64,000 nucleotides of DNA from Opitutaceae bacterium (GCA_002694885.1 NZNM01000056.1:6462-70461); one strand, 5' to 3'; positions 8,818-32,241 are shown, counted from the first letter of the stretch. The notes: generated from the letters alone by a model not told the origin. A program made the numbers and translations.

Positions 8818-9669
8818 CTAGGCTCGCCGTTTTCCTCCGGTCGCCTTTTGCCTGAATTCGGTTGGGGATTGGCCCGTTAGTCGCTTGAAGGTCTTGGAAA
8901 AGTGGAAAGGGTCGCAGAATCCGAGCTCGTCGGCCAGCTCTTGGAAGGTGTGCGTTCCCTGGTAGATGGCGGATTGGGCGAACTCAATTCGCTTCTGATT
9001 TTGGAATTTGGCGGGCGCGACTCCACGGGCCCTGGCAAAACGCTTTCGAAAGTTCTCGTAGCTTAAACCGACACGGCGAGCGACTTCCTCGGGAGCGATC
9101 CAGAGGCCCTCCATCGGTCCCGATAGCATCTCGGTCGCCGTATCGATTCGCGAGGCAGCGCTATCGATTTTGGCTTCCGAATCTCGAGTTTTCATTTCGA
9201 TTAGAAGCTGGCTGAATTGTCCGAGGATCTTGAGGCTTTGAGTAGGAAATCTATTTCGGGTGGAGTTTAGGCGCTCCTCTACGCGCTGATTCCAGTAGGT
9301 TATGCTATCGAGTTGCCATATTGGTTGACCGGGATCCAAGACACCCGCTTGCCTTAGCAATTCGAATTGAGGGCCATTGAAGATAGCGTAGGTGTGGGAC
9401 CAATCATTCTCCTGCATAGCCCCGTAGGCGTGGGCCAGCTCGGGAAAGACGATGATAGCGTCTCCAGTCTCGAGTTCCGTATCGATGCCGTGGGAGTCCT
9501 TGTAATAGGCAGTGCCGGATAGAATGAGAACTAGAGCATAGTCTCCCAAAATACGCATATTACCTGGATCGATGCCCGGGGTGTCATGGAGTTCGCCAGC
9601 GTGCAATATCGATCCTATTTCACTCGTAATAGGGGTTGAAACCCAAGTTTTGTATCGAGGTTTTTCCAC
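8818..9669 (-). CDS. AraC family transcriptional regulator
   Basis: N-terminal cupin-like ligand domain; C-terminal double HTH (EEVARRVGLSYENFRKRF; ELADELGFCDPFHFSKTFKRLTGQSP). Confidence 0.95.
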   Translation of the reverse strand: MEKPRYKTWVSTPITSEIGSILHAGELHDTPGIDPGNMRILGDYALVLILSGTAYYKDSHGIDTELETGDAIIVFPELAHAYGAMQENDWSHTYAIFNGPQFELLRQAGVLDPGQPIWQLDSITYWNQRVEERLNSTRNRFPTQSLKILGQFSQLLIEMKTRDSEAKIDSAASRIDTATEMLSGPMEGLWIAPEEVARRVGLSYENFRKRFARARGVAPAKFQNQKRIEFAQSAIYQGTHTFQELADELGFCDPFHFSKTFKRLTGQSPTEFRQKATGGKRRA

Positions 9670-26951: not shown

Positions 26952-27878
26952 ATGGTTCCTTGTCCCTTCCAACAACCTGTTGAATCGATTGCCCAATTCG
27001 GTGGTATCAATGCTCGGCGTCGTCAATTCACACAGCGTCAGGGATTGTCGTTTGGTGCCTACCGGATCCCGGAAGCGTCGAACTGCTTCTCGTGGCCATT
27101 CGAATCGTTCTTGCAAATCGTATTCGTGACCAAGGGCCGCGTATCGGTAGGCCTGCCTGATGAGGGATCAACCTCTGCTATTCAAGGGGAATGGTTTGTT
27201 ATTTCCCTTGGAGCATGGGCTGGAACAACATCGTTTGAGTGCGAATCTCAGATTGGGGTAATTGAATGCTCGAAAGAGGTCTGGCAAGGTTTGGTTAACG
27301 AGGAAGATACTCTCCTCCACGCGAGAAAAGCTTGTTATAGCTGTTCACAGCGCGAAGAAGCGATTCTGACAAAAGGAATCCAAGATGCCCGTATGCGAAA
27401 ACTTTCAGAAGGTTTGCTTAACAATATAGGTGCTTCACCCAGCGATCGACTCTTAGTCGAATCTATGACCCTCGAATTTTTGGCACGGGTTTGTGACTCA
27501 AAATTCATTTCGGGATCTTCAAAGTCAGAACCATGCTACAGAAGCAGGGATGAAGAAGCCCTTGCAGCAGCCGCTAGTTACTTGGAAGGAAATCTCGATG
27601 AGAATCATTCCCTTGCCGGCTTAAGTCGGAAGTTTGCCTTGAACGAATTCAAGTTAAAACGCGGTTTCCGAGAACGGTTTGGTATAACTGTTTTCGGTTA
27701 CCTGAGACAGTGCCGCATGGATCGGGCTCGTCAGTTGTTACTCAGCCGCAGGTATACGGTTCTAGAAGTCGCGAATGCAGTCGGTTATGCGAACCCTAGC
27801 CATTTTGCCAGGGCTTTTCGGGGATGTTTTGGACTAAACCCTAAGGCTTTTTTAGCAGGTTCGGCTCGACAATCCTAA
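26952..27878 (+). CDS. AraC family regulator, PchR/YbtA-like (siderophore-uptake type)
   Basis: LSRKFALNEFKLKRGFRERFGITVFGYLRQCRMDRARQLL, EVANAVGYANPSHFARAF; adjacent to a TonB receptor. Confidence 0.92.
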   Translation: MVPCPFQQPVESIAQFGGINARRRQFTQRQGLSFGAYRIPEASNCFSWPFESFLQIVFVTKGRVSVGLPDEGSTSAIQGEWFVISLGAWAGTTSFECESQIGVIECSKEVWQGLVNEEDTLLHARKACYSCSQREEAILTKGIQDARMRKLSEGLLNNIGASPSDRLLVESMTLEFLARVCDSKFISGSSKSEPCYRSRDEEALAAAASYLEGNLDENHSLAGLSRKFALNEFKLKRGFRERFGITVFGYLRQCRMDRARQLLLSRRYTVLEVANAVGYANPSHFARAFRGCFGLNPKAFLAGSARQS

Positions 27879-28279
27879 TTGCAAAAAGCCTGTGCGTTAT
27901 GAGGCGATCGAAAATACGCGATTTTTATGAAATGCTGCGAAAATTAAAAGGTTCCTTAGACCTATTTGCAATAAGTGTGGTCACGTAGCCAGTGAAACTT
28001 CGATTCTTTGCAAAACTAAAAATATGACCCGTGGGTGAGCCACTAAAAGAAGAAGAGATTTACCTCGGATCGTGATTTCCAGTGAAAGGTATTTTGTGTG
28101 TAGTTAGGATTGGGAATTGTGGCAGAAAGATCTGAATTGAAGCGCATATGCTCCAGCGTGGAGCAGTTTTTCTCCCGATCGGAGTAGAATAAAAGATTAC
28201 AAATGGGTATAGTAATGCCTTAGACAAAGTTCGGTTTGGAACCAGGATTTTGTCAAAATTACTCAAACTAATACTCAAA

Positions 28280-30334
28280 ATGAATAGTAAAAGATTAAGG
28301 TCTATAACTACGACTGCGTTTTTCATGGCAGTTTGTTCGAATTTGCATGGGCAACAAGGCGATCCTGTAAAGTTGGATGACTTGGTTGTTGTCGGCGAGT
28401 ACCTGCAGTCGAATCAGGTAAATGCACTTAAGACTCCGACTCCAATTAACGAAGTTCCACAAAGCTTAGTAATATTGACGTCTGATTATATGTCACTTCA
28501 GGATATGACAGGGATGGCTGACATCGCTGATTACACCCCGGGCATTGATGCGGGACAGGGTGAAGGTCACCGAGATGACATTCTGTTCAGAGGCGTAAAA
28601 TCAACAGCTGATTTTTTCGTGGATGGCGTTCGAGACGATGTGCAATACTTCAGGCCATTGTATAATATTGAACAGGTCGAAGTGCTTAAAGGTGCTAACG
28701 CTCTTTTCTTTGGCCGCGGTGGAACAGGAGGTCTTATAAACAGAGTTACAAAGAAAGCTATCGTAGGTGAGGAATTTACTAATTACTCCCTTTCGCTGGA
28801 TGATTTAGGCGAAACTTACGCAGGGCTGGATACCAACCTATCGCTTGGTTTGAATGGAGCTTTTCGAATGAATGCCTATATCGAGGACCTTGAAAACCAT
28901 CGTGATTTCTACTTCGGGGACAACAAGGGCATAAACCCAACGTTCAATTTTGATTTGAGTGAAACCACAAATGTAAACATCTCATACGAGCACCTAGACC
29001 ATAAGCGTTTCATTGATCGAGGCATACCATCCGCTTCCGGAGTGCCCGTAAAAGCACTAGCTGATATAACTTTTGGGGATAAAGATGAAAATTATTCAGC
29101 TCTGGATGCGAATATTCTTAGTTTGACTGTCGATCAACAGCTGGATGACGAAACTAAACTCCGCTTTGGATTCACAGATAACGATTTTTCGAAACTGTAC
29201 CAAAATCTATATGCCAGTAGCTATGATTCCACAGCTAACACCGTAACCTTAGCTGGTTATCGTGATACGACTGATAGAAGTAGTAACATTCTCTCCCTAG
29301 ATCTAATCGGTGAGAAAGAGGTAGGTGGAATCGGTCACAAGTTCGTTGTGGGATTTGAGAAGATAGGTACGGACAACGACAATGATCGTTTTTACATGGA
29401 TACGGATAACCTGGATAACAATTCCAAGGGTGAAAAAATTACTGTACCGATTGCTGATCAGTTAGTCATACCAAATTTTAACTTCACGACAGAGAAATAC
29501 GACGAAACGGAAGCTGATCTCAATGTGAGGTCAATTTACTTTAGCGACGAAATCGATTTATCTGACCAATTCAGTATGGTTTTGGGTGGAAGGTTTGATG
29601 ATTTTGACCTTTCGGTTGTGGATGTTTATGGTAACTCGGGGGGCAGTGCATCAAAGGTAGATGAGGAGTTTTCGCCTCGCTTTGGCCTCGTATTTAAGCC
29701 CCAAGCAAACTTGTCAGTGTACGGTAGTTATAGCGAGTCGTTCATTCCGAAAAGCGGCGGGCAGTATGCTGATTTGAAAGGCAGCAAAAAGCAGAAGACT
29801 GATCCAGATGTGTATGAAAACAAGGAATTTGGGGTAAAGTATGAACTGGACAATGGACTTAGTCTGACTGCTGCATTATACGACTCCACTGCGGTTAAGC
29901 CGACGGGATCAGTTGCTGATGGAGATTACGCAGTAACCGAAACATCTACAAAGGGTTTTGAGATTACAGCGACTGGAAATGTTACAGAAAGCTGGTTTAT
30001 CTCAGCAGGAGCTAACGTAGTAAACGGAACCGTTCCAGCAGAAGTTGCGGAAAACAGTTACTCTGTCTGGAACCTATTCAAAGTCAGCGATCAATTCAGC
30101 TTGGGACTAGGTTATATTAGCAAGGGCGATACTGTGGGTAAAGGTAGTACAAAGCTACCATCTTACAATCGTTTGGATGTTTCAGCTTATTATACGGTTA
30201 ATGAGTATATGCGGCTCCAGTTGAATGTGGAAAACGCTACAGACGAGCTGTATTTCCCTCACTCTTACGGAAGTGGTCAAGTAACAGTCGGTGCCCCTGT
30301 TCATGCGACTCTAAGGCTGTCTGGTCGTTTCTGA
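28280..30334 (+). CDS. TonB-dependent siderophore receptor (Fiu/PiuA-like)
   Basis: Signal peptide, TonB-box-like DDLVVVG, plug motifs FRG...FFVDGVRD and IEQVEVLKGANALFFGRGGTGGLINRVTK; C-terminal LSGRF. Confidence 0.92.
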   Translation: MNSKRLRSITTTAFFMAVCSNLHGQQGDPVKLDDLVVVGEYLQSNQVNALKTPTPINEVPQSLVILTSDYMSLQDMTGMADIADYTPGIDAGQGEGHRDDILFRGVKSTADFFVDGVRDDVQYFRPLYNIEQVEVLKGANALFFGRGGTGGLINRVTKKAIVGEEFTNYSLSLDDLGETYAGLDTNLSLGLNGAFRMNAYIEDLENHRDFYFGDNKGINPTFNFDLSETTNVNISYEHLDHKRFIDRGIPSASGVPVKALADITFGDKDENYSALDANILSLTVDQQLDDETKLRFGFTDNDFSKLYQNLYASSYDSTANTVTLAGYRDTTDRSSNILSLDLIGEKEVGGIGHKFVVGFEKIGTDNDNDRFYMDTDNLDNNSKGEKITVPIADQLVIPNFNFTTEKYDETEADLNVRSIYFSDEIDLSDQFSMVLGGRFDDFDLSVVDVYGNSGGSASKVDEEFSPRFGLVFKPQANLSVYGSYSESFIPKSGGQYADLKGSKKQKTDPDVYENKEFGVKYELDNGLSLTAALYDSTAVKPTGSVADGDYAVTETSTKGFEITATGNVTESWFISAGANVVNGTVPAEVAENSYSVWNLFKVSDQFSLGLGYISKGDTVGKGSTKLPSYNRLDVSAYYTVNEYMRLQLNVENATDELYFPHSYGSGQVTVGAPVHATLRLSGRF

Positions 30335-30383
30335 TTATTTAGTTTTTAAACGATAAGGTTCGTTTTTTCATGGATAGGTCAAT

Positions 30384-30413
30384 CGGGCTATGCTGAGGCA
30401 TAGCCCGTTTTTT
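30384..30413 (+). terminator. Rho-independent terminator
   Basis: CGGGCTATGC TGAG GCATAGCCCG TTTTTT. Confidence 0.9.
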
Positions 30414-30631
30414 ATTAGTATGAATATTTAATCGTTTAAGAGAAACTAAAGAGTCAGCAAATATAGTGAATAGTTGTGCTTTGAAAGTGTATCATACCGA
30501 AAGAACTTAATGTATTCTGACCAGTGCTAATCTAAGTCGTGTTTATTGGCTAAAGAAAATAAATCCTTTTAGGAGTATGCTTTTTTCTTCTTGGAGTGGA
30601 AAAGACCGAATTCATACGGTAGACTGTTGCG

Positions 30632-30940
30632 ATGGTTGAACATTTTAGTGCAATACGATGCGAAATATTAGCTCCAGATGATCACGCACTGGTCGATATC
30701 GGAAAAATCGCTAAAACCTGTGCAATAGATCTTGGTATCAATGTTCCACTAATTTTGATTGGATCTCATCAGATAAGTCGAGAGACCGAATCGGCTATAT
30801 CGTTAAAAATACCTAAGGAAATAGCTATTTTAAATGATGGGATATGGAAGCTAGCTAGTCGGATTGCCTGCTTCTGCCCGGAAATACGAGTATCTACTCA
30901 GATATATAGCCAAAGCAACTTTAGCTCAATTCAGCTATGA
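30632..30940 (+). CDS. Hypothetical protein, 102 aa
   Basis: ORF overlaps the next gene by ATGA (30937-30940), implying translational coupling. Confidence 0.55.
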   Translation: MVEHFSAIRCEILAPDDHALVDIGKIAKTCAIDLGINVPLILIGSHQISRETESAISLKIPKEIAILNDGIWKLASRIACFCPEIRVSTQIYSQSNFSSIQL

Positions 30941-31797
30941 ACAGAATTCCGCGAGAAGATTTTCGGAAAACAGAACCTATTAGTCGTGATTGCAGGGGAT
31001 TGATTATCGCGACTAACGATGAAGGTTTAATCGCTTTGAAGCCAGATTTTGTCGAACTGTTCAGTCAATTAACATCTTTGCCTGAATACTATTTACAAAC
31101 TCGCCATGCGTACACCACCTTAATAGCTAGAAGGCGTCATGTAGAGTTACGAAGTATCAAAAATACGAATCTAATTTCAGACTGCGAAGAAAGTATCCAG
31201 TTGGATAGGACAAGTAGTCATCGTATGTATGCTCACGTCTCTCGCTGTGAATGCTGCGGGTCCCCAGGCCGCATTGAAGTTCGAAATAAGCACAATTTAG
31301 AGGTATTACAGATTTGTTGTCCTCCTATAGTGAAAGCTATAGACTGGGGTAAGATTATAGCACTTTCTTCGATGGAAGAAGGAGTGAGCCACTTCAGAAG
31401 TGATAGGGAGCATTATCCATTCATTCCAAAATCGGCTAAGAAAATTTCTAGTCATCCTTCGAAAATAACGAAATTCTTTGAATTTCTTCGTGAGCGATCA
31501 ATTGCGTTTGTTGCGACTTTAGAAACGGATGGAGTTATTCATAGAGAGAAAATTCTAGCGGAAAGAATTGAATGTAGTGATGAGATTCTGATTGTTAAAG
31601 GTACCTCGCAGACACTGCGCCTAGACTTGGCTGCCGCACTTTCCCTGTTCTCGTTGGATGTCGACGGTTCAAACACAATCTACGTTGCTGGAGATCAAAA
31701 TGTTCAGCTCTTATCAATTAAGGTTATCTCGTCTGCCAAAACTAAAAAATATTTGCCGATTTGGACTAACTTTTTTGGCGAAGATAAAGTGCGATAG
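30937..31797 (+). CDS. Divergent HemS/ChuS/ChuX-like (hemin-degrading fold) protein with a CECC motif
   Basis: Two halves resemble HemS repeats (LKPDFVELF..L..L....LQTRH; FFEFLRERSIAF..TLETDGVIH); located downstream of an iron receptor. Confidence 0.55.
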   Translation: MNRIPREDFRKTEPISRDCRGLIIATNDEGLIALKPDFVELFSQLTSLPEYYLQTRHAYTTLIARRRHVELRSIKNTNLISDCEESIQLDRTSSHRMYAHVSRCECCGSPGRIEVRNKHNLEVLQICCPPIVKAIDWGKIIALSSMEEGVSHFRSDREHYPFIPKSAKKISSHPSKITKFFEFLRERSIAFVATLETDGVIHREKILAERIECSDEILIVKGTSQTLRLDLAAALSLFSLDVDGSNTIYVAGDQNVQLLSIKVISSAKTKKYLPIWTNFFGEDKVR

Positions 31798-31798
31798 A

Positions 31799-31960
31799 AT
31801 GAATAAAAAGGATAAAAATTACGGCGCTACTACTAGCCCATTTTTACCTCGATTGGTTTTGTCGGATCGTCACAACGAAATAGTTAGATCGATCGTTGGC
31901 GTATTAGGTCCGCTTTTATTATTGCTGATATTTGTTATGACTATTAAAATGAATAGCTAA
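31799..31960 (+). CDS. Small single-pass membrane protein, 53 aa
   Basis: ATG 1 nt after the upstream stop; hydrophobic IVGVLGPLLLLLIFVMTI. Confidence 0.45.
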   Translation: MNKKDKNYGATTSPFLPRLVLSDRHNEIVRSIVGVLGPLLLLLIFVMTIKMNS

Positions 31961-32241
31961 TGATTTAGGCGTAAAACTTAGTAAAAAGTACGCAAATCTG
32001 TAGGCTTTAGTTTCTCAATATACCTCTTACTGAATTCGTTTATTACTCACCAAATAGCTGAAATACACAATTTTCATTAATCACTTTCCTCTGGGGATTA
32101 TGTAACTAGTTTATTTCACTTTCTAGATTGGAGATAGTGCAACTCATCGTCTTTATTTTACAGGTTTCTTTAATTGAAAAATGTGAGAAAAATAGTTTAT
32201 CGATTGTAGTAAGGGTTGTAGTGGTTATTTCTTAGCTCAAT

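Follow-up and report, generated by a model that had tools for sequence, protein, structure and literature searches.

Two-domain proteins of the HemS/ChuS/PhuS/HmuS type (tandem PF05171) bind or degrade heme in the cytoplasm of Proteobacteria. Canonical members have about 10 helices, and the axial heme ligand is a His on helix alpha7 of a helical lid (H196 in HemS, H193 in ChuS and H209 in PhuS), with an Arg on the distal side (R102 in HemS, R100 in ChuS and R112 in PhuS) (PMC6018153). In vitro, ChuS and HmuS depend on a reductant supplied from outside (ascorbate, CPR/NADPH or ferredoxin/NADPH); HemS uses NADH to break heme, the NADH occupying an additional sub-pocket of the cavity (PMC6018153, PMC11773379). 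ChuX, HutX and AGR_C_4470 are heme carriers consisting of a single domain of about 160 aa, which dimerise. FhuF is a cytoplasmic [2Fe-2S] ferric-siderophore reductase with the motif C-C-x10-C-x2-C, and the ChuW/HutW system of heme breakdown is flavodoxin-dependent. The reaction of ChuW is an anaerobic radical-SAM heme degradation (PMC6018153). Iron release from imported heme and siderophores outside Proteobacteria and Firmicutes is largely unexplored, and the HemS-like family described below offers a testable candidate from Verrucomicrobia, which are abundant glycan degraders in iron-poor seawater.

The window, i.e. the whole stretch of DNA that was analysed, comprises 64,000 nucleotides of an Opitutaceae bacterium (GCA_002694885.1, NZNM01000056.1:6462-70461). 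The gene under study is an open reading frame on the + strand (30937..31797) encoding 286 aa (P0001). The product carries no signal peptide and was taken as cytoplasmic. When P0001 was used as a single query, no match was obtained in Pfam, NCBIfam or PDB sequences, and PF05171 did not match it even at E 0.1, which places the protein below the Pfam gathering threshold. The possibility that this was not a real gene was rejected, since the frame is kept from 99% down to about 20% identity and its motifs are selectively conserved. When 1.8 billion cluster representatives were scanned exhaustively with HMMER, 84 relatives (50% identity clusters) were obtained, nearly all of 275-300 aa. One further candidate, P0026 (2596 aa, 13 "matches"), was discarded as a repetitive adhesin-like protein and a compositional false positive. 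A profile was built from 73 of the 84 relatives, the median identity to the query being about 22%. No description of this family was found in the searchable literature or in curated family libraries.

The family profile matched PhuS (4mf9, 4imh) and ChuS (1u9t, 4cdp) with E of about 1.2e-5, and both domains were collinear in the match to PhuS 4mf9 and ChuS 1u9t, including the T-R strand motif (QTRH as against LTRN). PF05171 itself was touched weakly by 6 of the 73 members, the best value being 6.3e-5. The AlphaFold (AF2) model computed on the deep alignment had a pLDDT of 90.0 and a pTM of 0.87; with 8 close homologues alone the pLDDT was 38.6, and the deep alignment was thus required. When the pLDDT-90 model was compared with PDB using Foldseek, the top nine matches were holo- and apo-PhuS, HemS and ChuS (E 5e-14 to 2e-12, TMq 0.68-0.71, probability 1.0). 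Single halves of the model matched ChuX, HutX, AGR_C_4470 and 2hqv. The single-domain carriers superposed on each half with TMt 0.52-0.61 and are also devoid of a long helical lid, but the protein from the window is a covalent tandem and carries a Cys loop. The modelled product of 30937-31797 is thus confirmed as HemS-like in fold, and the two HemS/ChuX-like halves that an earlier note on this DNA had recognised by eye are borne out by the two-domain profile match as well as by the Foldseek comparison with HemS. The family is a lineage-restricted variant of the HemS superfamily accompanied by two orphan partners, and not a new kind of system.

Against this common background, the HemS-like protein is about 60 residues shorter than HemS, ChuS and PhuS, and the parts responsible for canonical heme binding are missing. 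The AF2 model has four helices only (38-45, 134-144, 175-186 and 267-281), as compared to 10 in ChuS. Residues 191-229 of the PhuS chain, which include H209, H210 and H212, had no counterpart in the profile alignment, and 79 residues separate the SIQFFD-equivalent from the FVGN-equivalent strand in P0001, 39 fewer than the 118 of ChuS. The lid position (residues 145-167) is occupied in the model by a loop without helix, in which the alignment showed P161 and P164 to be conserved. This segment harbours no conserved His, H159 not being conserved. PhuS R112 aligned with Q88, in a variable column (R in 13, S in 10, Q in 8 and H in 8 of the 73 sequences). The lid His (H196/H193/H209), F199 and a conserved distal Arg, all present in HemS/ChuS/PhuS, are therefore lacking, and the protein is a HemS reduced to its beta-core, without canonical axial His and distal Arg.

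What the family has conserved instead is a cysteine loop, which no described member of HemS/ChuS/PhuS/HmuS possesses as an invariant CxCC-SPG element. The earlier note had pointed to a CECC/CCP cluster with the motifs SRCECCGSPGRIEV and LQICCP; both are indeed present in the translation, at residues 102-115 and 124-129, respectively, and the spacing in P0001 is C-x-C-C-x19-C. The codons of C104-E-C106-C107 (31246..31257, + strand) specify a loop between predicted strands 96-101 and 111-116. C104 and C107 were found in 73/73 sequences and C106 in 70/73 (96%), making the CxCC cysteines the most conserved residues of the family, and they are followed by S109 (92%), P110 (90%) and G111 (95%). Additional members collected from whole genomes and metagenomes also keep CxCC, the exception being G020 with CxxCC. 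The codons of C127-C128 (31315..31320, + strand) lie at the end of strand 122-127. Here C127 is semi-conserved (49/73, 67%), C128 is lineage-specific (9/73, 12%), and a further C213 occurs in 7/73 (10%). Since C128 is rare and C127 is partial, whereas CxCC is kept, the universal feature is the Cys triad. The CxCC half of the proposed cluster is thus invariant or nearly so, but the CCP pair is not a family trait and only its first Cys is moderately conserved.

Other conserved positions are T26 (97%), G30 (97%), Q54 (71/73, 97%), W137 (92%) and H202 (75%). H57 (67/73, 92%; codon 31105..31107, + strand) belongs to the QTRH motif, which aligned with the TRN strand of PhuS in the profile alignment, and may serve as a fourth ligand or line the pocket. 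In the f26 clade C127 and H202 are missing, as is H57 in some sequences. From the hairpin register in the model we infer that C104, C106, C107 and C127 lie on one edge of a sheet. The same edge would carry the start of strand 87-90, the apparent equivalent of the HemS strand with the distal Arg and F104. This arrangement would place the Cys loop one hairpin from the old distal-Arg strand, beside the cavity.

The gene belongs to a small operon, and its upstream partner p102 (P0009, 102 aa; 30632..30940, + strand) ends in a stop codon that overlaps the HemS-like start (ATGA). Alignment of 12 p102 sequences, down to 29% identity, revealed four invariant Cys, C10, C30, C80 and C82, the latter within an ACFCP motif. 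No match to p102 was found in Pfam, NCBIfam or PDB, and the idea that it is a fragment of a HemS domain was rejected (hhalign probability 0.2%). In at least 16 loci, many of them from Opitutaceae, p102 immediately precedes the HemS-like gene; the f26 clade, among others, does without it. The third gene, p53 (P0010; 31799..31960, + strand), begins two bases past the HemS-like stop codon and encodes a tail-anchored membrane protein of 53 aa with a C-terminal membrane helix and without a Pfam match. Its counterparts in L001, L008 and L009, loci of the same genus, share 73-77% identity with it; 53-aa homologues are also found downstream in G015 and G002, and p53 is confined to the genus of the window. 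Upstream of p102, an intrinsic terminator hairpin (30384..30407, + strand), consisting of a 10-pair stem followed by a T-run and invariant in four related loci, marks the boundary to the receptor gene. Thus, the three small genes form a transcription unit of their own. The 300-nt leader of this operon (30408-30631) is about 82% identical across species in which the HemS-like proteins are about 70% identical, and it contains long invariant blocks such as TTTTTTCTTCTTGGAGTGGA. A scan with the Fur-box consensus gave no match at 3 or fewer mismatches, and Rfam revealed no riboswitch in the leader. Since the leader is conserved and matches neither, it may constitute an undescribed regulatory site.

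In many relatives the position of p53 is taken by a flavodoxin gene. A PF00258 flavodoxin of the CysJ/CPR "TGNAE" type was found 0-40 nt downstream of, or overlapping, the HemS-like gene in about half of the distinct loci (L016, L018, L030, L031, L048, L049, L050, L053, L054, L058, L061, L064, L066, L069, L070 and L071), and about 45% of the loci have no adjacent flavodoxin. This translationally coupled flavodoxin in many relatives, together with p102, would fit a redox or metal-centre function in iron acquisition. Flavodoxin and p102 as operon partners set the family apart from HemS/ChuS/PhuS/HmuS, as does the lack of a nearby HmuTUV-type transporter, none being seen in any locus. At the HemS-like locus of the window's genus there is no flavodoxin. 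The genome of the window has no stand-alone flavodoxin, its single match being CysJ beside CysI, and no canonical HemS was found in it.

At a locus of the same genus (L057, in G002), the HemS-like gene and the p53 homologue are separated by a 60-aa flavodoxin-like fragment (8820-8999). This resembles a flavodoxin gene in decay and would then be a trace of the redox partner that this marine genus has lost. In another verrucomicrobial class (G209; L055, 7914-9407), a Cys-less HemS that is positive in Pfam (29.3 bits) is directly followed by a flavodoxin. HemS may thus have been paired with flavodoxin before the Cys-bearing subfamily arose, and some canonical HemS proteins may naturally be reduced by flavodoxin.

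The surroundings of these genes associate the family with iron-chelate uptake. Most loci are flanked by genes for TonB-dependent receptors and PepSY_TM proteins, and some by AraC regulators, ExbBD/TonB, ECF-sigma/FecR (FecIR), DUF6607 or a COG0523 GTPase. In the window, the gene preceding the operon (28250..30334, + strand; likely true start ATG 28280) encodes a TonB-dependent receptor of siderophore type with Plug and beta-barrel. This receptor scored 208.6 bits with TIGR01783, 139 with Fiu and 93.7 with TonB-hemin, and no FRAP/NPNL box was found in it. The earlier proposal of a siderophore rather than a heme receptor therefore stands for the window but does not extend to the family. In six related loci (L049, L030, L051, L052, L054 and L025) the adjacent receptors scored best as heme/hemoglobin type, that of L049 with 349 and 332 bits, above both curated cut-offs, and with a FRYP...NPNL signature. 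Receptors of L018, L048, L056 and L059 are of the FhuE/FauA-like siderophore type. Location beside TonB-dependent receptors, heme-type in several relatives, is a feature shared with HemS/ChuS/PhuS/HmuS genes. Overall, the HemS-like family is tied to iron-chelate uptake. Because heme-type receptors adjoin the gene in six related loci, heme stays a serious candidate ligand for the family. Judging from the receptor sequences, different lineages may use different ligands, of which heme could plausibly be ancestral.

Among the smaller observations on the neighbourhoods, a COG0523 (CobW-type) metallochaperone GTPase gene follows the p102, HemS-like and flavodoxin genes in an uncultured Verrucomicrobia MAG (L016, 482-1975), which hints at regulation by metal starvation. 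In several Opitutaceae, DUF6607 genes stand beside the p102/HemS-like pair and PepSY/TonB receptor genes, as in L027 (4932-6296), L056 (9277-10467) and L058 (2506-3915). The genome of the window has its DUF6607 gene elsewhere (C11:13047-14069), beside DUF1501 and DUF1553 genes. No mention of DUF6607 was found in the literature searched.

Loss of the His lid, presence of the Cys triad and association with flavodoxin and p102 coincide in this family, a combination that fits a protein-bound electron relay acting on a bound iron chelate. Fold, ligand loss, Cys conservation and gene linkage are shown by the analysis; we infer the cofactor, the ligand, the direction of electrons and the reaction. 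The explanation that we prefer, and to which we give about an even chance, is a cytoplasmic redox protein that frees iron from an imported chelate by means of a flavodoxin-fed, Cys-bound Fe-S or metal centre. The HemS-like protein would be the cytoplasmic end-station of TonB-dependent uptake of iron chelates. Its retained HemS/ChuS/PhuS double beta-sheet core would provide a large ligand cavity, and the CxCC loop, joined in most members by C127 and/or H57, would hold an Fe-S cluster or another redox-active metal centre. Electrons would come from the flavodoxin encoded in the operon, possibly relayed by p102 in Opitutaceae, and would pass to the bound iron chelate, leading to reductive release of the iron. 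The ligand would be heme where the adjacent receptor is heme-type, and is probably a ferric siderophore in the window. In the window's genus the dedicated flavodoxin would have been lost, with the p53 membrane anchor in its place and another electron donor in use. The explanation presupposes that the ligand reaches the cytoplasm, since the module of the window contains no gene for a heme or siderophore inner-membrane permease.

Two described systems resemble this proposal. FhuF performs the job proposed here for the HemS-like protein, and both are encoded with siderophore receptors and contain adjacent Cys in their motif; however, P0001 has no Pfam match to FhuF/FhuF_C, and fold and Cys spacing differ from those of FhuF. 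The combination of ChuW/HutW, ChuX and flavodoxin likewise brings together a HemS-fold carrier, an Fe-S enzyme and a flavodoxin-type donor. Here, in contrast, it is the HemS-fold protein that bears the Cys site, and no radical-SAM gene was present in any locus examined. Some observations count against the explanation. CxCC is not a textbook Fe-S motif, and such runs also commonly mark Cu(I)/Zn thiolate sites, which speaks against the Fe-S reading. In the sequences aligned, only three Cys are universal, the f26 clade doing without C127, H202 and sometimes H57. The lack of a stand-alone flavodoxin in the organism of the window, and of an adjacent one in nearly half of the loci, also tells against it.

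A more specific version of the preferred explanation is possible, although we regard it as doubtful. The family would then represent a new class of iron-release enzyme, in which a minimal HemS beta-core harbours an Fe-S cluster held by three Cys, the fourth site being open or exchangeable. It would be fed by flavodoxin, with p102 (ferredoxin-like, 4-Cys) as a possible relay in Opitutaceae, and would strip iron reductively from heme and/or siderophores without heme oxygenase, radical-SAM enzyme or FhuF. A HemS-fold protein unable to bind heme canonically, the best-conserved feature of which is a Cys triad, is here tied to flavodoxin and TonB/PepSY genes. If the Cys loop does hold a redox cofactor, a protein-bound electron relay would be added to the known HemS-superfamily chemistry of His-ligated heme and soluble reductants (NADH, ascorbate, CPR). 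If true, this would also give a function to three linked orphan families now annotated as hypothetical (HemS-like, p102 and p53).

An unlikely alternative is that the protein is a passive PhuS-like carrier or chaperone, which takes up an imported tetrapyrrole or chelate in its beta-sheet cavity and hands it to another enzyme, the Cys serving as a structural Zn site that stiffens the hairpin, or one of them as a thiolate heme ligand in place of His. The best structural match, PhuS, is indeed a heme shuttle, a beta-hairpin loop such as that bearing the Cys is a common spot for structural metal sites, and heme-type receptors are adjacent in the six relatives named above. However, a passive carrier would have no use for the flavodoxin that is tightly linked to the gene at about half of the loci, and the neighbourhoods examined contained no heme oxygenase or other recurrent acceptor enzyme to which the ligand could be handed. 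CxCC is also unlike the CxxC knuckles of structural Zn sites, and the 4-Cys p102 would be left unexplained.

Regulatory genes near the family raise the question of a sensor, whose Fe-S or metal centre would report iron or the chelate and modulate AraC-type or ECF/FecR regulators. The conserved module of the window begins with an AraC-family regulator gene (26952..27878, + strand; PF12833, 2.7e-22), whose counterparts in the same-genus loci L001-L004, L022 and L023 occupy the same position with 88% identity. AraC genes also adjoin the gene of distant family members (L027, L030, L047, L048, L051, L066 and L071), and in L068 the HemS-like gene is immediately followed by genes for an ECF sigma factor and FecR. 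Labile Fe-S clusters are common iron sensors. Nevertheless, many loci have no regulator nearby (L016, L018, L025, L031, L069 and L070), no DNA-binding or known partner-switching domain was found in P0001 with Pfam and NCBIfam, and coupling to flavodoxin points to electron transfer, all of which makes a sensor very unlikely. Less probable still is an Fe(II) acceptor or chaperone that, after PepSY_TM reductases have freed iron in the periplasm and the iron has been imported, would use the Cys loop and the p102 thiolates to pass it to Fe-S assembly, for although PepSY_TM genes occur at most loci and two invariant-Cys proteins (HemS-like and p102) are encoded together, this leaves the large HemS-type cavity and the flavodoxin coupling unexplained, and no Fe(II) transporter recurs in the loci.

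In its distribution, too, the family differs from HemS/ChuS/PhuS/HmuS, being found only in Opitutales among named genomes. A match was obtained in 10 of 401 sampled Verrucomicrobiota genomes, the Cys-bearing ones all belonging to the order of the window, and in 9 of 61 close relatives. True matches in named genomes carry the labels Opitutales, Opitutaceae or "Verrucomicrobia", bar one evidently mis-binned contig. This contig (L023, PBZS01000083.1), labelled as a Gammaproteobacteria MAG, is almost certainly from Opitutales; its 7.6 kb harbour AraC, receptor, p102 and HemS-like genes with 72-88% protein identity to those of the window, and an identity of 84-88% was also recorded for the module. 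Related loci were sought with a degenerate DNA pattern for CxCCxSPGRIE, and 9 of the 21 pattern matches were set aside as containing no family member (L017, L021, L024, L026, L028, L029 and L032-L034, from Ruminococcus, Anaerolineales and others).

Within the window, GC content in 28000-32000 is 0.39-0.42, as compared to about 0.53 in the flanks, i.e. 10-14 points lower. In the sister species (L001) the AraC-receptor-p102-HemS-like-p53 module is located between trpA and a gene for 3-keto-disaccharide hydrolase. In its low GC and its different chromosomal context in the sister species the module resembles a mobile islet, but neither an integrase nor boundary repeats were found at it. Twenty metagenome runs, marine or seawater and drawn from 11 studies, contain the stretch. 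Short metatranscriptome contigs map to the receptor and HemS-like genes, weakly suggesting that both are expressed.
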